62,639 nucleotides of DNA, taken from positions 1-62,639 of the forward strand of contig CANRAI010000001.1 of the NCBI GenBank assembly GCA_947628555.1, read 5' to 3'. A program made the translations under genes and the position numbers. The stretch's first letter is position 1. Every line of letters starts with the position of its first letter. The notes beneath the pieces are model-generated. The model saw nothing but the letters and a program-made list of their open reading frames with translations, ran no database searches and was not told the DNA's origin. Of this stretch, positions 1,986 through 44,449 are shown piece after piece. Origin of the DNA: an uncultured Clostridia bacterium (GTDB lineage Bacteria > Bacillota > Clostridia > Christensenellales > Borkfalkiaceae).

Positions 1986-2378
1986 TGGTGGACCAGTCGG
2001 GACTTGCACCCGAGTCTTACATAGTTCGGAAAAGACTTCTACATACTTATTCCGCCTTTAAACTTGACCGTATTCCCCGGCGGACGGGGAGAATATCGGC
2101 GCATACCGCGTAAAAATTTCGCCTTATGAATCGCACGGCAGGCAATCTGAGGGCTATCCGTTTAATTAACGCCCGAAACCGCCAACGGAGCGCGGCTGCG
2201 GACGGACCGCTTTAAGTTAAGCGGCGCAAGCGGCGAAGCTTCCCGCATTGAATGCAGGGAAAGCTACAACCTTTTCAGAATTATTTTCTGCGTTTAAATT
2301 TAAATTCCGTTTTTACAAAGCCGAGCCTTTGGTATGCTTCTCCTTTCCTCCCTGCGCAATCGAATCTGGAACTGGCCC
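1986..2378 (-). ncRNA. ssrA: tmRNA (SsrA)
   Basis: The minus-strand RNA starts GGGCCAGTTCCAGATTCGAT (cf. the conserved GGGG...GGATTCGAC) and ends CTCGGGTGCAAGTCCCGACTGGTCCACCA. The 7-bp acceptor stem has a G3:U70 wobble and discriminator A73, which are Ala identity elements. A T-arm is present. An internal tag ORF (2217-2291) starts GCA and ends GCC GCT TAA. Length is about 393 nt. Confidence 0.85.
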
Positions 2379-16254: not shown

Positions 16255-16263
16255 AAAATGAAT

Positions 16264-16294
16264 ATGCGCCTTGAAAGAACTTTTCAAGGCGCAT
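16264..16294 (-). terminator. terminator hairpin closing the long minus-strand gene train
   Basis: 13-bp perfect stem ATGCGCCTTGAAA / TTTCAAGGCGCAT. It lies 26 nt downstream of the stop at 16320 and has A/T-rich flanks on both sides. Confidence 0.6.
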
Positions 16295-16319
16295 AATTTT
16301 CATTTAGTTTTAAACCGTT

Positions 16320-18470
16320 TCAGCCGTTCAGCGCGGCTTCTATTGCTGGACGGAGATCGTCCTTGCCCGCATTGATAATTGCGCCCTGTCTTACGAAAGT
16401 TATTATTCCCTCCGCGTTGGCCACAAGCGTTATGGGATAGGATGACTTACCTCCGCATCTGGTGAATATTTCGTCGCGCATATCCTCGAATCTTCTGTCT
16501 TGGCCGAAGATAATCTGCCAGTTTGACCAAGAAGATTTATTGTTCTTTTCGTTGATTGCGTCGATGAAATATTGAGGATTTTCATCATTGTTCGCATGAA
16601 TGGCTACCATTACTATCCGGTCGCCGTATTCCTCTTTGACCTGTTCGAAGTAAGGAAGTTCTTCAACGCAAGGTCCGCAACTCGTGTACCAGAAGTTGAG
16701 CACGAATACCTTTCCGAGCGCGTCTTTCGAGGAGAATGTTCCCTCTTTGTATGCGCTTTCATACGTATTTACGGTAAAGTCCATGATTTTATCGCCTACG
16801 ACATACCGGGTATCCTTTTGAACCGCCTTTAACTCTTCCTGTATTTCCTCAACCGCAAGCGGGCGGTTGTGGCGGGAATAGAATCTGGCGTTTTCGTTCA
16901 GAAAGACCGTCGTGGGGAACGAGCCGTCGCCGCCACATTCGGCGTATAACCCGATATCTTTCGTATCCTGTATAAACGGTATATCGTATTTGTTCCAGCC
17001 CTCGCTGTCGATTATGCCCTGAACGATTTCTGCGGTGTCGCTGTTTTCTATGTGCACGGCAACCACTTTCGCCGTATCTTTAATCTGTTCTTGAATTTCG
17101 CCCAAAGACGAAAGATAAGTTTTACTTGCTTCGTTGCGCGAGCTCCAAAATACCAGCACGGCGGGTTTTCTGTCGGATTCATAGTCTTGATAGAAATTGT
17201 ATTCGTCGCCGCCGTAAGCCGTAACGTAAGTCTTTGCAGTGAAATCTTCGATTTTCGCGCCTATCGTCGTAAGCGACGAGGGCTGAATGTTGTAATATAC
17301 AATCGCGCCTACGACAACCGCCGTGGCAAGCACCCAGGCAACCGCTTCCAAAATGAAAGCGCGCTTATTCAGCCTTTTCAAAGCAGTTTTGAATTTGCTT
17401 TTGGACGGCGCGGTTTCGGTTGAATTACCGTCATTAACGCTTTCGGGCTGAGTTACGGGTGTCTCTTCGGCAGGTCCTTCCGTTGCCGCATGTGCGACAG
17501 CCGTCTCCGCAGCCACGGTTGTGCCGTTTGTAAGCAATACGTTAAGCGGCTTGATTTCCTCTGCGGGCGCGCCGTTCGCCGCAGACACGGAAACGGACGT
17601 AGCTTTAAGGAATATCTTGCTGCCCTTCCAACTTATCGCCTTTGTGGGGCAAACGCTGATACATTCGCCGCAGTTGATACATTCGTGGTCGCCCACGTGC
17701 TTAATATCCATTTTACAATGGGCTATACATGCGCCGCAGTCGATACATTGGCTTTTATCCAGCTTAACGCCCAAAAGCGCAACTTTGTTAAAGAAACCGT
17801 AAATCGCGCCGAGCGGGCAAATAAAGCGGCAGAACGCCCTGTAAACAAACACGCAAGCCACAATGCAAACGACCAGAAGAATGGATTTCCAACTGAAAAG
17901 ATATCCGAGCATCGCATACAAGTCGGAGTTGCCGGCGTTCGATAAAAGTCCGCCCGCTCCGCCGAACGTGCCCGCGGGACAGATATATTTACAGAATCCG
18001 GGAACATTGTGATAGATAAGCGGCACGGCTATGACAAGCACTATCAAAAATACGTATTTAAGATAGGATAAAAGCCGCGTATATACGCTCTTTTTGACCT
18101 TAGGCGTTCTTACCTTGTATAAAAGTTCCTGGAAGAAGCCGAAAGGACACAAAAATCCGCATATCGTTCTGCCTAATGCAAGTCCGAAAAGGGCGATAAT
18201 TCCGATTATATAATACGGAGTAGTAGTTCCCGAAGAACCGAGCGAATTTTGCAGCGCGCCCAAAGGGCAGGCTACGACCGCGCCGGGACAGGAATAGCAA
18301 TTCAAACCCGGGGTACAAAGCTTTTTTGTGTTGCCCGTATAAATCTGACCTTCGGCGAAGCCTTTAAGGTTTGCGTTAGTAAGTAACGCCGCGTAAACCT
18401 GAATTATTCTCCGACGGGTGGGCAAGTGGTTTTTGAACCAGCTTCCTATTTTAATAAAAAATTGCTTCAT
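16320..18470 (-). CDS. NapH/MauN-like membrane polyferredoxin fused to two thioredoxin-fold (TlpA/ResA-like) domains
   Basis: 716 aa. The N-terminal multi-TM region carries CxxCP-type motifs (CYSCPGAVVACPLG, CKYICPAG, CRFICPLG). Two 4Fe-4S motifs follow (CIDCGACIAHC, CINCGECISVCP), then an extra TM helix. The first Trx-like domain lacks CxxC (VLVFWSSRNEAS). The second has WYTSCGPC, with its Cys codons at 16668-16679. Confidence 0.75.
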   Translation of the reverse strand: MKQFFIKIGSWFKNHLPTRRRIIQVYAALLTNANLKGFAEGQIYTGNTKKLCTPGLNCYSCPGAVVACPLGALQNSLGSSGTTTPYYIIGIIALFGLALGRTICGFLCPFGFFQELLYKVRTPKVKKSVYTRLLSYLKYVFLIVLVIAVPLIYHNVPGFCKYICPAGTFGGAGGLLSNAGNSDLYAMLGYLFSWKSILLVVCIVACVFVYRAFCRFICPLGAIYGFFNKVALLGVKLDKSQCIDCGACIAHCKMDIKHVGDHECINCGECISVCPTKAISWKGSKIFLKATSVSVSAANGAPAEEIKPLNVLLTNGTTVAAETAVAHAATEGPAEETPVTQPESVNDGNSTETAPSKSKFKTALKRLNKRAFILEAVAWVLATAVVVGAIVYYNIQPSSLTTIGAKIEDFTAKTYVTAYGGDEYNFYQDYESDRKPAVLVFWSSRNEASKTYLSSLGEIQEQIKDTAKVVAVHIENSDTAEIVQGIIDSEGWNKYDIPFIQDTKDIGLYAECGGDGSFPTTVFLNENARFYSRHNRPLAVEEIQEELKAVQKDTRYVVGDKIMDFTVNTYESAYKEGTFSSKDALGKVFVLNFWYTSCGPCVEELPYFEQVKEEYGDRIVMVAIHANNDENPQYFIDAINEKNNKSSWSNWQIIFGQDRRFEDMRDEIFTRCGGKSSYPITLVANAEGIITFVRQGAIINAGKDDLRPAIEAALNG

Positions 18471-18471
18471 A

Positions 18472-19416
18472 TCAGCCCAAACCTATACACTCCGTACAAA
18501 TTCTTATAGCCTTGTTGAACACTTCCATGATACTTCCGTTGAAGCAGCCGGCTATGACGAACGCGACGCCGAGGCAGGCTAAGGCTATTCTTATTGCGAG
18601 TATAAAATATTTACTGTGCACTACCGCCGCAACCTTGCCGTAAACGACAGGTTGGGGTCCTTTTATTCCCTTTGTTATGGCTTTTACATGGGGAAGCTGG
18701 CGCTTTGCCGAACGTTTCAGATAAATAACGTAGGCGCATCCCGCCGCATATACCACCGCCGCTACTGGCAGCAGAAAAGCTGCGGCTTTAAGCACTTCCC
18801 CCGTTTTGTTGACGTTGGGGAAATTGGACGGTATGCACATATATATGATTATATATACGACGTATAAAGCCGCAAAAACATAGAGAGCTATGCGCAGCTT
18901 CTTTAATACAGACTGTTCCTTTTTTACAATGCCGAAGGATTCCTTTAATTCCTCCCCGACTTCATCGGGAATCCGCTTCTGCAAGCGGTAAAGAATGTAA
19001 CGTTCGTCGGAAATCCCCGCCCTTTTCTCCGCAACGGGGAAAATTTCCCACAGAATAAGCCCGACAAAAATCAGCCCTATCCAAATCCAAAGGGGCACAG
19101 CCAATATGCCCGAAACGCGCTCGGACACAAGTTCGTATGTAAAAGGACTTGTTAGTCCCTGCGACGTTCCGCCTAAATAGATATCGAGCACTTGCCAAAT
19201 TACAAGCGCTCCGACTATTATGGTGTAAGCAGACATAATTGTTCCGAAAACCATTCTTACTATCACGTTAGTGGAAAGCGGAACATTTTTGTCTTTCGTC
19301 TTATCAATATATCGCAGTACGGAATACACGGTAATAGCCGCGGTAAGCAGTACGACTAATATTATAAGCACAATAATCGGCGCGGCTAACGCACCGGTTG
19401 CAAGTAATTTATTCAT
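18472..19416 (-). CDS. polytopic membrane protein ending in a C-terminal CxxC motif (RICTECIGLG)
   Basis: 314 aa with about 7 predicted TM helices. The last 45 aa resemble the small clostridial CXXC-motif membrane peptides often found next to NapH-like 4Fe-4S genes (from memory, unverified). Its stop lies 1 nt before the start of the next gene. Confidence 0.55.
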   Translation of the reverse strand: MNKLLATGALAAPIIVLIILVVLLTAAITVYSVLRYIDKTKDKNVPLSTNVIVRMVFGTIMSAYTIIVGALVIWQVLDIYLGGTSQGLTSPFTYELVSERVSGILAVPLWIWIGLIFVGLILWEIFPVAEKRAGISDERYILYRLQKRIPDEVGEELKESFGIVKKEQSVLKKLRIALYVFAALYVVYIIIYMCIPSNFPNVNKTGEVLKAAAFLLPVAAVVYAAGCAYVIYLKRSAKRQLPHVKAITKGIKGPQPVVYGKVAAVVHSKYFILAIRIALACLGVAFVIAGCFNGSIMEVFNKAIRICTECIGLG

Positions 19417-19446: not shown

Positions 19447-19710
19447 TCAGCTTAACCACAGATAGGCAAAACAGACCATCAGTCCGAAAATCAGCATTAT
19501 CAAAAGAATTACGGGCACTGCCGCCGCAAACGCGCCGCGAACCATTTGCCAATACTCGCGGCGGCTTATTTTCGGCGGGACTATTCCCTTCTTTTTATCT
19601 TCGAGCCGCTTTTCGAGAGTCGGATCGTACCACTTGAAACCCTCTACGTTCATATTTACGAAAGTCGTAGTCGTATCAAGTTCGGGTTTTTTTTTCTTCT
19701 TTTTGGCCAT
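19447..19710 (-). CDS. small tail-anchored membrane protein with an N-terminal poly-Lys run
   Basis: 87 aa. It begins MAKKKKKKPE... and has a C-terminal TM helix (GAFAAAVPVILLIMLIFGLMV). The coding strand contains an A9 run (19687-19695). Confidence 0.5.
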   Translation of the reverse strand: MAKKKKKKPELDTTTTFVNMNVEGFKWYDPTLEKRLEDKKKGIVPPKISRREYWQMVRGAFAAAVPVILLIMLIFGLMVCFAYLWLS

Positions 19711-28628: not shown

Positions 28629-31600
28629 TCAGTTTTTATTTATTCTGCGGCGAAGCTTTTGAACCAAAAGCAATGCGCCTGCCGTAATAAGAAGCATAAG
28701 TCCCGTTCCGCCGAGAGTCGAACCAATGTCCATAGTGCCGCAACCGGCGCAGTTCCCGCCCCCTTCGGAAGGATTTTCGGGCTGATCATCTCCACCTTTC
28801 GCCGTAACCGTAATAGGAACACGGCAATAGCGACCCTCATACTCCAATTCAACGTAATCGTCGAACGTCTGCAACGCGCCTGCATATTCGGGAAGTATGG
28901 TTAAAAGCGATGTATCGTATATGAGTTCCGTCGAGTAATCGTCGTACGTTACCTGAACTACCAAGCCGGTTATGTCGAACTTTTCACCTTCCACATACTG
29001 CGTTTTGCAGTTTTCAACGGAATAAACTTCGACGCCCGATACCTTAATGGGTAAATTGAAACGCTGTTTTACGGGTTTTAAAGCGGCTTCTATTTCACCG
29101 AGCTTTGCGCGCCTATCTTCGCCTTCGTTAGCAAACTCGAACTGCTTTTCGCTTCTTATATTATTGTAAGCGAGGTGCGCTTCCTTTACCTTTTCGGAGA
29201 ATTCGGAAACAATTTTGGTGTTCGCGTCGTTGACTTCGAGGTTCGCCCAGGCCTTAACCAAATCCAAAACGAAGCTGTTAACAAGGGTTTTGAAGTTTCT
29301 GGTATTGTCGTCGATAAGTTCGCCGAGGTCGTTCTTTACCAAGAAGTAGAGATTGTAAATGTAGCTATCGTAGCCCGAGCCGTTGGAAGGATAGCCTATC
29401 GTCAAATCGCTTTGCGCATTGCCCGTCCAATAGCTGAAGAACCTATCGCAGAAGTTAGAGTAGTACAACGTACGGTAATCCATTGAATTATAGCTGAGCG
29501 GCTCGAATTCGCTCAACAGGGTAGGCGCGTTCATTGCTTCGAAATCGTATCTTTTCACTTTCGAATTATAGAACGCCGCAACGCCTATTGTCTTTAAGCT
29601 GTAAGGAAGGGTCACCGCTTTAAGCCCGTTGTCAACATATGCGAACGCATACGCCTGGATGCTTGCCGTTCCGTCCAATACTCTGTAATGGTTGCTAAGT
29701 GTGTCTCCCGTCGTTCCGATTAAATTCGTGGGATACATGACAAGTTCGTACTTTTCAGTGGTTCCCGTCGCAAAGTCGGTAATTCTTCTGTAAAGAACGT
29801 TGTTATCTGCAAAAAATACTTTGTTGCCGTCATTAACCGTTACGCTTGTCATAAGCGTGGACATAAACGCGCCGTCGCCGAGGCTTACAAGGGTTGCGGG
29901 AATATCTATGGTACGAATCCTGGAATTGGCAAATGCGTGATTTCCTATTCTTTCCGCTACGGGAATTTTAATATCCGTTATCTTCGATTCTGTTACGTAG
30001 AACGCCTGCTCGCCTATGTTCGTTGCCTTGTTGAGGTGGAGAACAGTCAGTTTTGTGTTTGTAAAAGCGAAATCACCGATCTTCTCGAAATTTTCAAGTC
30101 CCGTTACCGTTTCCAACGCCATACATTCCATAAACGCCGCGGCACCGATTTCGGTAACATTTGAAAGGTTTATATTCGTAAGCTTATCACAATGCCAGAA
30201 CGCCGCCTCACCTATTTTCGTAAGCCCGCCTATGTTGACTTCTGTAAGACTACTTTCCTTATAGACAGGAACACGTTCCTGAGTAGCTGTGATGTCGTAT
30301 CTGAGTATTCCGGGGAAGAATGTATATCTGCCCGAATCCTTTGCGGTTACGCCGAAAGTTGCGGTTGTCAAAGCCGTGCAGCCTTCGAAAGTGCGCTCGC
30401 CGAGGGTCTCGACCGAAGGAAGAGTCGCCGCTCCAAGATGTTCGCAGTTGAAGAAGGTATAGCTGCCCATCTTCTTTATGCCAGCGGGCAGTTCAACGGA
30501 CGTCAATGCCGTGTTTGCAAAAGCGTAGTCGCCCGTTTCGGTGATTGCCGAATTAAATTCGACTCCTGAAAGTTCGGTGCATCCGTCGAAAGCGTGGTTG
30601 CCTATACTTTGAACTCCTGCGGGAATTTTAATCGAAGTAATCTTGCTGCCCGCAAACGCAAAATCGGGAATTGCTTTTAAATTTTCAGGCAAAGTTACCG
30701 AAGTAAAATCCGTATTTGCAAATGCGCCTTCGCCGATATCCTCAACAGTCTCGGGTATTATAAGCGAGGTGACGCCTTCAAATTCGCTTTCGGAGAACGC
30801 GTACGCCGCAATTCCCGTAATATTGGCTTTAAACTTGAATTCACTTGTCACGGTTGCGGGTGCGCGGAGAAGGGTATTGCCGCGGTAAACGCCTTCATTT
30901 TCCGCTTCGGTATATCCTTGGCCCCACGTGATGTTCACGTTCTTGTCTCCGAATATGCTGTCGCCGAGTACGGGATTGCCCTTAGGCATATTAAAGCTTG
31001 TGATTGCAGTATTAGCAAACGCGCTGTCGCCGATATAGGATACCGTGCAGTTATCTGCGAATTGGACTGTGGAAAGCTGAGTACAGCCGCGGAACGCATA
31101 GGCGTCGATTCTGAAAATCGTATTCTCCCAGAAAGCTTTATTGCCGTTACTGTCCACAGCGTCCTTGTCTCCGAATTTGACAGTTTCCAGCGAAGTGCAG
31201 TTTTCAAACGCGCCGCCGCCGATGTTTACGATTGTATCGTCGGCAAGCATACCCCATAATACCGGGCTGCCCGAAACGCGGGGATTGTTTATAGTAACTT
31301 CTTCAAGCGAAGTACATCCGTAGAACATACCTTCGCCTATTGCCGAATAATGAGCCGTTTTAATTTTGTTAAGTTTTGTACAGCCTTCGAATACGTTATA
31401 TCCGACGGTATGCAGACCCGTTATGTCGGCTTCCAGAAGTTCGGTGCAATTTTTGAATGCGTAGTCGTCTGCAATACCTATTTTCTCCATGTGTCTGATT
31501 TGTTTAAGCGGGGTATTTGCAAACGCAGCCGTACCTATCGTGACAACCTTAACGTTTGTAAGGTCGAGAATTTTAAGGCTCGTACATCCCATGAACGCGT

Positions 31601-34600
31601 CCGCAAGAATAAGGTTTACAGCCGCCAGGTCGAGTACCGGCTGAGAATTGTCATCCGTTTCATCGATGAAATATACCTCTTCAAGCGCCGTACAGTTGAG
31701 GAACGCTCTTTCGGAAATCTGGGTAACCGTCTTGGGGATGATTACCTTCTTCATTGTATCGTTATCCTTGAAAGCTTCCTCGCCGATAGTCATTATGTTT
31801 CTGTCGTCGGGGATTTTAACCGTTTCGGTACTGCCGTAGTAATGGTTGAGGGTCATATTCTCAACGGTGAAAGAATCTACGACGCTGAGAATTACAACCG
31901 CAGTCACCCGCGTGCCGTTCGCCTGCGTAGCGGTCGCCGTAATAGTAACCGTGCCGCGGGTGTTATTTGTCGTAACCTCGCCATCCTTTACAGTTGCTAT
32001 ATCTTCGTCCGAAGAGCTCCATGTAAAATTCAAATCGCTTACGGGATAGTACCAGGGGTCTGATTCTATATCCAGTGTGAAAGTCTGACCTGCGTTTACG
32101 GGCACCGTTCCGCCCGGGCCGGGGTTGGTTAAACTCAGCTTGGAATTTATAATAGGGCCGAAACTCAGCGTAGGGTCGGGCAGCTTGCGCGTGCTGTCCA
32201 CTATCTTAACGTTCAGCGTTATTGTTTCCCCGTCCTTTGTTGAGACTGTAACGCGCACGTTTTCCGTCGCCTTAACTGCGAACAGCTGGTTATTTTTAAC
32301 CTTTAAGCGGTCTGAACGGCTTGACTTCCATTCGTAGTTGGAAGGATTTGTAGAACCGCAATTCAGCCCAACGGTATAAAGTTCGTTAACTTCAAGCGTG
32401 AGGTTATAAGTCGGGTTGCCGTTCTGGGTGGTGGTTGCAGTAAGTCTGTCGTCCGTAACAAAGCTTATTTTACTGTCGTTCTGGTTGGAATCGTTGGCAG
32501 TTTTGAAATTGATGTTATAAACGCTGTGGTTAAGCGAATAGTCGTCAACCTGAATGTAAAGTTTGTTGCGGTATTTTTCGTAGATATCGGTAACCTCTAT
32601 GGAAACCGTATTAGTAGTATTTCTCTGAGGATTATAGATAGGCGTTACGTATTCCGTAGCCATATTGATTATGGGCGTTTCGGTGCTATTGGGGTCGTAA
32701 TCCTCGTCGGAATAGCAGAGAAGAACGGACTGGGGATAATGGTTATCGTAAATATCGAGGTCGAGATAAATCCTCTGTTTGGTCTCCTTTCCGTCTGTGT
32801 AATCGTAGAAACGAAGGCGCGTACCTTGAAGAATCGGCGAATCGTAATCGACGTAGAAATCGGTACTGAAAGAATTATCGGGATTGAAATTGCCGTTGTC
32901 CTTATCCGACGCCTTCATATAGAACTTGAATTCTATATTGTATTTACCGTTGTTGATAAGTCCAAGCTCATCGGAATCGAGTTTAAGCTCGACAAGTCCG
33001 GGTACAGCGCTGCCGCCGCCCGCATAGCCCTTGCCTACACGGTATTTCGTGCCCTGATATACAAGCTCGCCCGTGTTTACATTGCGGATGTCGTATGCGA
33101 CGAGTTCGGCGTTCCTCAGAAGTCCCGCGTAAAGCGCTCTTAAACCCGTAGAAGTGAGGTAGTTCTCCATACTTGTCGCGCCGTAGAAGTCGTTGAAACG
33201 GGAAATCGAGCAATGCTCTTCCGTAACGTAAATTTGGTCCGCGTTTTCGTCTTGCAGATATGCGAATCCGCCCATGGGCACAGCGTATCTGCCGTTATAA
33301 TAAGTTGAATATAGCTGGGTAGCGAAAATACTCTCGTGGGGCTTCTGCTCATCGGTCAAAGAAGTATCCTGCTCAATAGCGGATATTTCATATGCGTTGT
33401 AGTCGAGCATGGGCGCCGATTCCCAGTCGCCGTAGAAGCCCATGAAAGGCAGGTTGAGGTCGCACTGGTCTTCGTTACTTTCGTCCGATTCGAGGGAAAT
33501 GAAACCCTCGACGTACATGCCGTTTTTGAAATATCTGTCGATATACGCCTTCTCTTCCCTGGAAAGCGTAAGTTTAACGTTGATTGTCGCTTCCTGACTA
33601 CTTGCAACCGTGATTAAATTATTTCCGCTGTCAAACGTTGCGCCGTCAACTTTGAATTCGGCGGGAATGTCGTCAAGCATATAAGCGGCTTCGGCTACGG
33701 CGAGTTCGTTAGTCGAAATCGTTTCGGTCATAAATCTCGAAACAAGTTTGAATTTAAGTTCTTTTTCGCCGAAATTCTTTACTTTGAATTTAAAGCTATA
33801 TACGCCGTTCTTCTGCTCGTCCTCCCCGAGTTCTATCTTGGGTCTGTCGTCCTCGGCGCCGCCGTCATTTTCGTCGGTGGAAAGATATGCTTTGGTTGTG
33901 AATATGTTCTTTAATGTCGCAAGCCCCGCGCCCTGCTTTCTGGGGGAATAGGGCAGGTGGTTTTGATCGTAAAGAAGGGTTGCCGAGCTCATTACAATCT
34001 GGTTTGTAAGCGTTGTAAGCTCTACTGCGTTTATACCCGAGTGAGTATTTTTCAAATAGTCTTTGACAAGCGCCATAAGTCCCGCGAGGTTGGGAGTAGC
34101 CATAGACGTACCGCTCATTTCCTCGTAGCCGCCCGAAACTGCGGAAGTAATCTCGCCGCCGTGAGAGGTTATGTCGGGTTTAAGTCCCAAGTCGGGAGTT
34201 GCGCCCCACGACGAGTAATCGTTCATGAAAGGGCCGGCAAGATTTTTCTTGTTGATTTCTATCTTGCCCTCCGCTCTGGGGCCTCCGGCGGACATGGTAA
34301 GCGCCGAGCCCGCGTCCATATCTACCGAAACGGCGGGTATCCTTTGTTTGGGGTCGATGTCGCCTAAGGACATTCTTATAGTGCCGGGCACGTTGTTATA
34401 GACAATTATGCCGTTCGCGCCGAAGTAGGACGCAGTCTCAACTTTTTCCTTAAAGTCCGTGGTACCGCGCCTTACGACGACGATTATCTTTTCGTTCTCG
34501 GCTTTATTTTGAAGGCGGGCTCTTATAGTCGATGAGTAATCGCCCGCGGAACCGACGCCGCTTATTACAAGATAGGTAAATGTTTCGCTTGGCTTGTCGC

Positions 34601-42539: not shown

Positions 42540-42630
42540 GCGGACGTACCCAAGTGGCTCAAGGGGCTCCCCTGCTAAGGGAGTAGTACGGGAAACCGTA
42601 GCGCGAGTTCAAATCTCGCCATCCGCGCCA
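42540..42630 (+). tRNA. tRNA-Ser (anticodon GCU), CCA encoded
   Basis: Hand-folded cloverleaf of 91 nt. The acceptor GCGGACG / CATCCGC has one C:A mismatch. It has a 3-bp D stem, anticodon stem CTCCC / GGGAG with loop CTGCTAA, a long variable arm (TACGG-GAAA-CCGTA), T arm GCGAG-TTCAAAT-CTCGC, discriminator G and CCA. Confidence 0.85.
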
Positions 42631-43279: not shown

Positions 43280-44449
43280 TCAGATTTCGCATACCGTATA
43301 GCGTGTATCGGTCAACGTAAACCCTTCCGCGCCCATATTTGTGTAAAGTTTCAAGCCGTCGCCGCGGTCGAGCGTAAAAACAACTCTCCTTCCGGACAGC
43401 TTTTCTTTTATGAATTTTTGCGCTTTTTCCGCACCCATTGCCATTATTGCAGTAGTAAGCGCATCGTTTTCCGCGGCGGAACCGCCCGCCACCGAAGCCG
43501 AAGCGACGCCGCTTTGCACAGGTCTGCCGCTGAAAGGGTCAAACACGTGGCACAGCCTTTCGTCAACTCCGTCGCCGTCGGTATCCAGCATAAAATAGTT
43601 TACGTTATCGCCGCTGGTAGAAAGACAATCGTCCATAATCGGAAAACTTATGTATTCCTGCGGGTCGGAAAAGCTGCCGTTTTCCACCTGCCTGCGCGGA
43701 TTGGAAAGTTTCATTGTAAGATTGTTGCCGTCCGCGGGAAATTTTTTTACGGCTATACTGCTTGAACCGAAGCTGAAATATCCGAACCCGAAACCGCGGC
43801 TGTCCATAACGGCGCTTACACTGTCTGCGGCGTAGCCCTTCGCAACACCGCCCAAATCAATTTTCATCGACAAAACCCGCCCCCCGACTTCTACGGTAAA
43901 TTCGGGCTTGACCGCATAAAATTTTCCGTCCGCTTCTTCCAGCTTCAACTCGCCGAAGTGCGAAGAAAGCGATACGTATTCAGTTATTTCTTTGTCGTCG
44001 GGCAATTCTTCCCGCGAACGGGGAAAATTTTCGTCCGAACCGTTGAAGCCGTAGGCATATAAGCTGTAATAAACGGCGGGGTTGTAATAGCCCTCCGTCA
44101 TTCGGTAAACGTTTTCGGAAATAGTGAGGACCTCGTAAGTTTCCGCCGAAATTTCCACTTTTTCACCCGCTGCTGCGTCGTTAAAACGCGATACGTCCGA
44201 AGTTTTTTCGGTTGCGGACAACTTTTTATCGAGGTCTTGAATAAGTTTGCGAACCTCTTCCGCAAGGGCTTCGAAACGCGCGTCGAACCCGTTTTCTCCG
44301 CCGTGCACGTACGCGACAAGTTCGGCGGTGCTATTCATAACGTCATAGTACGTTCTGCGCCTGTATTTCACCTCGCCGCCGCAACCGCATATAATCGTCA
44401 GCAGGGAAAGCCCCGCAAGCGTTGACACAAACAGTTTTTTCACGGTCAT
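43280..44449 (-). CDS. apbE: FAD:protein FMN transferase (ApbE family) lipoprotein
   Basis: 389 aa with lipobox IICGC. The motif LGGVAKGYAAD matches the ApbE GG(I/V)AKGYA signature. Confidence 0.8.
   Translation of the reverse strand: MTVKKLFVSTLAGLSLLTIICGCGGEVKYRRRTYYDVMNSTAELVAYVHGGENGFDARFEALAEEVRKLIQDLDKKLSATEKTSDVSRFNDAAAGEKVEISAETYEVLTISENVYRMTEGYYNPAVYYSLYAYGFNGSDENFPRSREELPDDKEITEYVSLSSHFGELKLEEADGKFYAVKPEFTVEVGGRVLSMKIDLGGVAKGYAADSVSAVMDSRGFGFGYFSFGSSSIAVKKFPADGNNLTMKLSNPRRQVENGSFSDPQEYISFPIMDDCLSTSGDNVNYFMLDTDGDGVDERLCHVFDPFSGRPVQSGVASASVAGGSAAENDALTTAIMAMGAEKAQKFIKEKLSGRRVVFTLDRGDGLKLYTNMGAEGFTLTDTRYTVCEI

Follow-up and report, generated by a model that had tools for sequence, protein, structure and literature searches.

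A NapH-like iron-sulfur module linked to thioredoxin and paired with a CD1871A-family protein: a candidate system for extracytoplasmic reductant supply in gut Clostridia

Thioredoxin-like proteins outside the cytoplasm are, in the textbook account, kept reduced via DsbD or CcdA together with the cytoplasmic NADPH-thioredoxin system. For reduction in the envelope, a 2026 review names DsbD/CcdA and no other route. NapH-like iron-sulfur (Fe-S) membrane modules, on the other hand, have been proposed as modular conduits to extracytosolic flavin mononucleotide (FMN) domains, as in NosR and PceC/RdhC, and a thioredoxin-linked NapH-like system is not described in that study (Meheust et al. 2021, PMC8238504). 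Here, we analyzed a 62,639-nucleotide stretch of DNA from an uncultured Clostridia bacterium of the Borkfalkiaceae (GCA_947628555.1, contig CANRAI010000001.1; the whole stretch is called the window below), in which one gene fuses a NapH-like module to two thioredoxin (Trx) domains and is preceded by the gene of a membrane protein with a C-terminal CxxC tail. Our verdict is that this two-gene cassette is a real, widespread and uncharacterized variant of extracytoplasmic reductant supply. Its module and its output belong to known classes; their combination is undescribed, and so is the obligate micro-protein partner. Neither a description nor a solved structure of the fusion/partner system was found in the literature and the PDB. 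We regard it as probable that the fusion and its CxxC-tailed partner form an Fe-S electron conduit across the membrane to a surface Trx, with electrons flowing outward.

The fusion gene and its predicted topology

The 716-aa fusion product runs from a NapH-like module with four transmembrane (TM) helices through a ferredoxin domain, a linker and a fifth helix (TM5) to the domains Trx1 and Trx2. This layout had been proposed in a first-pass annotation made from the letters alone, and the open reading frame (ORF) and its domains were confirmed by Pfam, NCBIfam and AlphaFold. Pfam Fer4_5 (PF12801) matched in two stretches (58.1 bits vs a gathering threshold of 22), and a ferredoxin-type Fer4 dicluster occupies residues 235-290. 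Further along, Pfam places Thioredoxin_8 at residues 435-498, weak yet above threshold (36.9 bits vs 27), and AhpC-TSA/Redoxin/Thioredoxin at residues 558-691 (60 bits). The features of the gene, with the evidence for each, are as follows:

16320-18470, minus strand: fusion gene, 716 aa (ORF list, domain matches, 120 full-length homologs)
18249-18326, minus strand: loop 1 signature K49..C52-x-PGLN-C58-YS-C61P-x-A-x3-C68P-x-G-x2-Q74, with four invariant Cys (invariance, alignment with Escherichia coli NapH)
18144-18221, minus strand: TM2 followed by C104-x3-C108P, cytoplasmic face, common to NapH (invariance, NapH alignment, Fer4_5 match at 89-127)
17976-18080, minus strand: TM3 followed by C160-x3-C164P, predicted outer face, where NapH has W..NP (invariance, charge topology, NapH alignment)
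17814-17891, minus strand: TM4 followed by C214-x3-C218P, cytoplasmic face, common to NapH (invariance, NapH alignment)
17622-17768, minus strand: cytoplasmic 2x[4Fe-4S] ferredoxin-type domain, C242/245/248/252 and C264/267/270/274P (Pfam/NCBIfam, PDB searches)
17400-17603, minus strand: low-complexity linker rich in A, T, E and P, predicted disordered, of varying length among homologs (unconserved columns; predicted local distance difference test, pLDDT, <50)
17292-17360, minus strand: TM5 anchor AFILEAVAWVLATAVVVGAIVYY, residues 371-393, N-in/C-out (hydropathy, K+R flanks)
16815-17273, minus strand: Trx1, a thioredoxin fold without CxxC (FWSSRNEAS) (Pfam, homolog alignment, AlphaFold)
16323-16814, minus strand: Trx2, ResA/TlpA-type catalytic domain, W594-x3-C598GPC601-x2-E604-x-P606, with cis-Pro P679 (domains, invariance, profile and structure matches)
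16668-16679, minus strand: codons of the CGPC active site, residues 598-601 (sequence)

We found that all 20 motif cysteines of the fusion are invariant in 121 sequences with identities down to 44%, while the non-motif cysteines 202, 206, 512 and 672 are unconserved in the same set. Judged from this alignment, the invariance is far beyond chance. Eighteen of the 20 belong to the module part, and the remaining two form the CGPC of Trx2. The three motifs that had been read as CxxCP in the first-pass annotation are actually CxxxCP (C104-C108P, C160-C164P and C214-C218P), and an additional four-Cys motif, C52-x5-C58-x2-C61P-x6-C68P, lies ahead of them at the N-terminus; the two ferredoxin-type CxxCxxCxxxC(P) motifs are present, and the reported loss of CxxC from Trx1 and codon positions of the Trx2 CGPC proved exact.

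The module is colinear with E. coli NapH at 24% identity. Shared with NapH are C104/C108P, C214/C218P and all eight ferredoxin cysteines. Cysteines 52, 58, 61, 68, 160 and 164 fall in two loops that are periplasmic in NapH, which has a deletion at the first site and W..NP at the second, and on this alignment the six outer-loop cysteines are the distinguishing mark of the Trx-linked NapH-like subfamily. The Fe-S domain of NapH and its CX3CP pairs after TM2 and TM4 are reportedly cytoplasmic.

Hydropathy and AlphaFold secondary structure place the helices of the fusion at about residues 19-40 (weak), 84-106, 131-153, 194-216 and 371-393. In the 15 residues on each side of TM5, K+R averages 5.6 before the helix and 1.5 after it, and 121 of 121 homologs have more K+R ahead of the helix than behind it, as the positive-inside rule would have it for outward-facing Trx domains. 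Since the ferredoxin domain carries no Tat export signal, it must be cytoplasmic, so both Trx domains would lie outside, and we therefore predict that Trx1 and Trx2 are extracytoplasmic and tethered via TM5. An inverted arrangement, in which cytoplasmic Trx domains would belong to a membrane-tethered reductase of the ferredoxin:thioredoxin type inside the cell, is very improbable. It gains something from the weakly hydrophobic TM1, which leaves the helix count uncertain, and from the fact that the topology of the family is a prediction, but the ferredoxin domain must be cytoplasmic and is separated from the Trx domains by TM5. The inverted arrangement also conflicts with the Trx partners of unfused modules, which are lipoproteins with a signal peptide and lipobox Cys, and with split versions of the fusion, in which a K/R-rich N-terminus precedes the TM anchor.

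For the full-length fusion, an AlphaFold run fed with 75 close homologs gave the membrane module a pLDDT of <50, too low to be of use. Residues 1-300 modeled with divergent unfused relatives reached a pLDDT of 91.8 and a predicted template modeling score of 0.86. The membrane helices in this model are short (13-19 residues), which is compatible with an hourglass-shaped core whose inner and outer centers would lie within tunneling distance. A Foldseek search of the module against the PDB matched the ferredoxin sub-domain only, at E 0.14 or worse, and PDB sequence and profile searches gave no entry matching the membrane part, so the module fold has no experimental template.

Both Trx folds were modeled by AlphaFold at pLDDT >90. 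Their Foldseek neighbors are ResA, StoA, DsbF, Etrx1/2, CcmG and FetE, at template modeling scores of about 0.8, and a PDB profile search with Trx2 gave ResA at E=1e-13. In Trx2, W594, C598, C601, E604, P606 and P679 are invariant, which amounts to a ResA-type CxxCxxExP with cis-Pro, and the CxxC dipeptides across homologs give CGPC or CDPC. Trx2 scores below equivalog cut-offs (55 bits vs 170 for the ResA model), and by these matches it is a family-level relative of the TlpA/ResA/CcmG reductases and not an ortholog. We rejected a peroxiredoxin assignment, suggested by the AhpC-TSA match, since the motif is WxxxCxPC with the ResA-type E and P rather than the peroxiredoxin PxxxTxxC. Trx1 is a paralog of Trx2 (27% identity, E=1e-12) that lacks CxxC in every homolog and is missing altogether from a size class of the fusion family of ~560 aa. 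By analogy with the b domains of protein disulfide isomerase, Trx1 would be a non-catalytic spacer or substrate-binding domain.

These features also bear on whether electrons might run the other way, with the Trx oxidizing substrate thiols and passing electrons inward to a quinone or a cytoplasmic acceptor as in DsbB or VKOR. NapH proper is regarded as a quinol dehydrogenase, so a fold of this kind can interact with quinones. VKOR-Trx proteins are known to join a membrane redox module to Trx in a similar way, and the outer-face Cys pairs are reminiscent, in their number, of the loop cysteines in DsbB and VKOR. Trx2 nevertheless carries the reductase-type signature of ResA, TlpA and CcmG described above, its structural neighbors are all reductases, and the helical insert of DsbA is missing. 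The hosts, moreover, are strictly anaerobic gut Clostridia, many of which are said to lack quinones, and moving electrons from disulfides into a low-potential [4Fe-4S] center against the membrane potential would be thermodynamically unfavorable. We therefore consider an oxidase unlikely.

The CD1871A-family partner and three arrangements of the cassette

Just 1 nucleotide separates the fusion ATG from the stop codon of the preceding gene, whose product matches NCBIfam NF040920, 'CD1871A family CXXC motif-containing protein', over its last 37 residues (278-314; 37.3 bits vs 32); a Pfam scan of this partner gave no domain. Two features describe it:

18472-19416, minus strand: partner gene for a polytopic membrane protein of 314 aa that ends in a CD1871A-family domain (ORF list, NCBIfam, homologs)
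18475-18540, minus strand: partner C-terminal tail NGSIMEVFNKAIRICTECIGLG-COOH, with CTEC at 18487-18498, predicted outside (invariant in homologs)

The first-pass annotation had noted a CxxC at the end of the upstream gene and suggested a relay partner. The ending ...ICTECIGLG is indeed present, and all 112 partner homologs, every one named 'hypothetical', close with KAIxIC[TS]ECIGLG-COOH, their other cysteines being unconserved. Relative to typical CD1871A members of 45-62 aa, the partner has an extra N-terminal ~230-270 aa with 4-5 TM helices, and it is predicted to have its N-terminus inside the cell and its tail outside. To sample the fused family, 80 GTDB species genomes were fetched by family profile, and the module ORF was recognized in 76. 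A partner-tail ORF lies directly upstream on the same strand in 70 of these 76 loci, mostly with an 8-nt overlap.

Many relatives of the module stand alone. An exhaustive search with residues 1-295 returned 407 cluster representatives at E<1e-30, many of them proteins of 270-310 aa that keep all 18 cysteines at 37-50% identity and that carry only the database names '4Fe-4S binding protein' or 'NapH'. For this unfused group, 80 metagenome loci were fetched, of which 77 had a recognizable module, and neighbors were counted over 71. We found that an ORF of 45-62 aa ending in ...KAIxIC[ML]ECIGIG lies directly upstream of the unfused module or overlaps it in 77 of 77 loci. These small ORFs score 65-74 bits on the CD1871A model and consist of one TM helix between a K/R-rich N-terminus and the tail, with a predicted N-in orientation that leaves the tail outside. 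Upstream of them, a gene for a TlpA/ResA-like CxxC lipoprotein, with signal peptide and lipobox Cys, occurs in 44 + 21 of the 71 loci and is directly adjacent in 60. The same trio is annotated in RefSeq for Peptoclostridium acidaminophilum DSM 3953 as 'TlpA disulfide reductase family protein', 'CD1871A family CXXC motif-containing protein' and '4Fe-4S binding protein'.

The fused arrangement accounts for about 72 of the 76 GTDB loci, and the fusion is spread over many gut Clostridia genomes. In four independent genomes the gene is split, with the module ending within the linker and TM+Trx encoded by a separate ORF in another frame, which overlaps the module end by ~20-40 nt, starts at a Met of its own and carries a K/R-rich anchor:

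L036:10992-11624: split TM+Trx ORF
L040:10938-11552: split TM+Trx ORF
L041:6397-7005: split TM+Trx ORF
L061:4140-4724: split TM+Trx ORF

At these four loci the gene is either naturally split or subject to frameshifting, whether programmed or accidental. Together, the fused, split and adjacent forms make up Rosetta-stone evidence, drawn from gene arrangement, that module, CxxC tail and Trx act together. Judged from their conserved adjacency, partner and fusion likewise form an obligate pair, the conserved unit being two genes. The proposal of the first-pass annotation thus survives in part. Its core idea, an Fe-S device in place of CcdA/DsbD, was backed by every in-silico test that we ran, and its suggestion of a partner in the CxxC-ended gene has strong support, but because the partner is conserved beside the module in fused and unfused loci alike, the reading as a single-polypeptide device is wrong.

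Module relatives are encoded by at least 593 stretches of GTDB species genomes and occur in 583 of 600 candidate metagenome stretches. Matches on Enterococcus plasmids were set aside as irrelevant, as they cover the ferredoxin motif only (16% of the query). CD1871A, the name-giving member of the partner family, lies by its locus tag within the conjugative transposon CTn5 of Clostridioides difficile 630 (CD1845-CD1878a), and the literature catalogs CD18710 as 'conjugative transposon'; the cassette may be horizontally mobile. In the window, the partner has an N-terminal extension of ~41-44 aa (19254-19416, minus strand) that adds a very hydrophobic TM helix, most homologs being ~272 aa long. Since a good ribosome-binding site, AAAGAGGAAATATG, precedes the long start and a 96%-identical homolog (P0121) shares the extension, it seems real in the lineage of the window.

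Proposed electron route and genomic surroundings

For the conduit that we favor, we infer cofactors, an electron donor, a direction of flow, roles for individual cysteines and substrates as follows. A low-potential cytoplasmic donor, most plausibly ferredoxin, would reduce the 2x[4Fe-4S] domain, which would pass electrons to a center made of the two CxxxCP pairs at the cytoplasmic face, the pairs that NapH also has. From there, electrons would cross the thin four-helix core to an outer-face center composed of the six extra cysteines and the C-terminal CxxC of the partner. This outer center would turn one-electron Fe-S chemistry into two-electron dithiol/disulfide chemistry, as ferredoxin:thioredoxin reductase (FTR) or heterodisulfide reductase (Hdr) does, and would reduce the CGPC of the tethered Trx2, which in turn would reduce disulfides or oxidized residues of surface or secreted proteins. 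The ten module cysteines and the two tail cysteines could make three four-Cys sites, or one cluster plus thiol relays. Ferredoxin has a potential of about -400 mV and Trx proteins of the ResA/TlpA type lie at about -260 to -340 mV; with these potentials and an inside-negative membrane potential, outward electron flow is favored.

Several points weigh against this route. We know of no precedent for an Fe-S cluster on the outer face of a Sec-inserted protein, so the outer cysteines may serve as thiol relays and not as ligands of a cluster. TM1 is weakly hydrophobic (mean Kyte-Doolittle 0.17), and the placement of loop 1 rests on homology to NapH. No conserved gene for a cytoplasmic donor was found among the recurrent neighbors of fused or unfused loci, and no additional Trx-bearing client was found near the cassette in the window. 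A phmmer search with E. coli DsbD-beta gave no DsbD/CcdA-like ORF in 2.16 Mb, comprising 163 loci and the window, and this search is of limited sensitivity and had no positive control among Firmicutes CcdA proteins. Finally, our literature search found neither experimental work on any family member nor a description of the cassette.

In the window, the partner and fusion genes close a minus-strand array with gaps of at most 67 nt, which encodes a GLUG protein, an S8 protease, a 482-aa protein, an OppA-like binding protein, OppBCDF, an 87-aa membrane protein, the partner and the fusion, and which ends in a strong terminator:

16263-16295, both strands: bidirectional intrinsic terminator-like hairpin with a 15-bp stem, closing the transcription unit after the fusion gene

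Neither nap nor mau genes, NapG included, were found in the window or among recurrent neighbors. Elsewhere, large surface lipoproteins, one to five per locus, accompany the cassette in 46 of 75 fused loci, and ~40% of these lipoproteins have a Redoxin-type CxxC domain of their own. Close relatives of the window locus have an extra 246-aa Redoxin protein directly downstream of the fusion and ~1000-aa SpaA/Trx surface proteins, and the window lacks both:

L002:8421-9161, L002:12909-14256 and L001:11246-13659: extra Redoxin and SpaA/Trx genes in close relatives

Among the 71 unfused loci, a response regulator is found in 30 and a histidine kinase in 27, alongside an ATP-binding cassette (ABC) transporter of the FtsX type, and next to such genes the unfused cassette looks like an accessory module. 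This context, along with the giant S8 subtilase surface protein that lies beside the fused cassette in 24 of 83 loci, could be taken to mean that the cassette is a redox sensor, or a maturation factor for one surface enzyme, rather than a bulk conduit, much as NosR has long been annotated as a regulator and NosR-type relatives still carry that label. We consider this improbable. Pfam and NCBIfam place a DNA-binding or signaling domain in neither the fusion nor the partner, the two-component genes, which fused loci lack, come with the ABC transporter in the way usual for peptide-resistance modules, and the presence of several Trx-bearing lipoproteins per locus suggests a supply network.

That the cassette comes last in an array of Opp peptide-uptake genes would be compatible with nutrient-linked reduction, and so with a third alternative, a CcoG-like reductase of metals or of small molecules such as cystine, in which the Trx would have a role like that of Sco or TlpA, as metallochaperone or thiol shuttle. 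The module shows weak similarity to CcoG/FixG and NosR models, and TlpA-type proteins reportedly serve copper-site assembly in other bacteria. However, the CcoG model gives 21.7 bits against a cut-off of 316.7, Trx2 has CxPC and lacks the CxxxC/His motif of Sco-type proteins, and no metal transporter recurs near fused or unfused loci, and we consider this alternative unlikely. The array gives a hint that disulfides at the surface could be reduced in aid of extracellular proteolysis and the uptake of peptides.

The S8 protease of the array is a 2497-aa surface protein (window 28629-36122, minus strand) with S8 subtilase, PA and Fn3 domains and eight BspA-type leucine-rich repeat (LRR) stretches, and giant S8 subtilase/LRR relatives lie within 10 kb of the cassette in those 24 of 83 loci at ~30% identity (for example L026, L044, L047, L067 and L073). 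The 1929-aa protein at 36190-41979 (minus strand) has GLUG and DUF5640 matches only, and its relatives recur close to the cassette in 8 of 83 loci. The 87-aa protein (19447-19710, minus strand), encoded between oppF and the partner gene, has many lysines at its N-terminus and a single TM helix at its C-terminus. Only 6 related loci conserve it, at 49-78% identity, and it is probably lineage-specific. We discarded this protein and a 427-aa neighbor as parts of the system, as they recur in 6 of 83 and 1 of 83 loci, respectively.

Farther away, an ApbE flavin transferase gene (43280-44449, minus strand; 172 bits) adjoins lgt and a MatE/MurJ-like gene, which indicates that the organism carries out extracytosolic flavinylation; no FMN_bind substrate was seen among the window ORFs scanned. 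A flavinylation link between this gene and the fusion was rejected, given the distance of 25 kb and the lack of an FMN_bind domain in the fusion. The window further holds a tmRNA gene (1986-2378, minus strand; 113 bits) and a tRNA-Ser(GCT) gene (42540-42630, plus strand), which together with lon, clpX, clpP, trigger factor and hsp33 point to an ordinary chromosomal housekeeping context.

Significance and comparison with known systems

Tentatively, and with slightly more doubt than assurance, we propose that the CD1871A protein or domain and the 18-Cys module constitute a third class of machinery for exporting thiol-reducing power, distinct from DsbD and CcdA. In it, a ferredoxin-fed Fe-S chain would cross the membrane and, at an FTR/Hdr-like end site completed by the CxxC of the partner, reduce surface thioredoxins; the class would be widespread in gut Clostridia in fused, split and unfused forms and apparently carried on conjugative transposons such as C. 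difficile CTn5. If so, a ferredoxin-level Fe-S route would explain how strictly anaerobic gut Firmicutes maintain redox at their surface, for example by repairing oxidized surface proteins, by keeping catalytic cysteines reduced, or by opening disulfides in host or dietary proteins before proteolysis by the S8 protease and uptake via Opp, whose genes adjoin the cassette in the window. It would also give a function to hundreds of genes named '4Fe-4S binding protein', 'CD1871A family CXXC' and 'TlpA family', and a first defined output to a NapH-like module. Cultured carriers are P. acidaminophilum DSM 3953 and probably C. difficile 630.

The systems in which DsbD or CcdA serves TlpA, ResA, CcmG, StoA or Etrx offer the nearest functional analogy, in that an anchored extracytoplasmic Trx with CxxCxxExP would likewise depend for its reduced state on a membrane protein that is dedicated to it and encoded close by. 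The module is not related to DsbD/CcdA, with no PF02683 match in fusion or partner. Where DsbD has two transmembrane cysteines, the module has 18 invariant cysteines, including two ferredoxin-type [4Fe-4S] motifs. Its presumed donor is an Fe-S or ferredoxin-level carrier, in contrast to the cytoplasmic thioredoxin that feeds DsbD, and the CD1871A partner would be needed as well.

With NapH and MauN, the module shares four TM helices, CX3CP after TM2 and TM4, a C-terminal 2x[4Fe-4S] domain and a Fer4_5 match above threshold, which makes it a member of the wider 'NapH-like' superfamily. The fusion nonetheless scores far below the models for this group, at 65.5 bits vs 213.05 for TIGR02163 and 43.4 vs 234 for the NapH equivalog NF007013, and an unfused relative reaches 79.7 and 72.1 bits on the same two models. 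Further differences are the six extra outer-loop cysteines, the CD1871A partner, the Trx output, the lack of nap genes and NapG, and the fermentative, anaerobic hosts. In NosR and PceC, too, a NapH-like Fe-S module links cytoplasmic or membrane electron pools in modular fashion to an extracytosolic redox domain, either fused or adjacent. Their output is an N-terminal flavinylated FMN domain, whereas that of the fusion is a C-terminal Trx after an extra TM helix; the fusion has no FMN_bind match and scores 24 bits vs 1000 on the NosR model, and its outer-loop cysteines and CxxC partner are peculiar to the Trx-linked subfamily.

VKOR-Trx and DsbB-DsbA pairs resemble the cassette in combining a polytopic redox module with an extracytoplasmic Trx fold and in having loop Cys pairs as relays, but they oxidize their Trx via quinones, while the fusion has a reductase-type Trx2 and Fe-S motifs. 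For the proposed chemistry, the closest analogs would be FTR and HdrB/HdrD, in which a [4Fe-4S] center beside a redox Cys pair converts single electrons to disulfide reduction. No similarity of the fusion to the FTR catalytic subunit or to CCG domains was detected by Pfam, NCBIfam, PDB sequence or fold, and FTR and Hdr are soluble or act on the cytoplasmic side. The six cysteines of FTR, four of them ligands and two forming one disulfide, may nonetheless find a counterpart in the six outer cysteines of the module and the CxxC of its partner.

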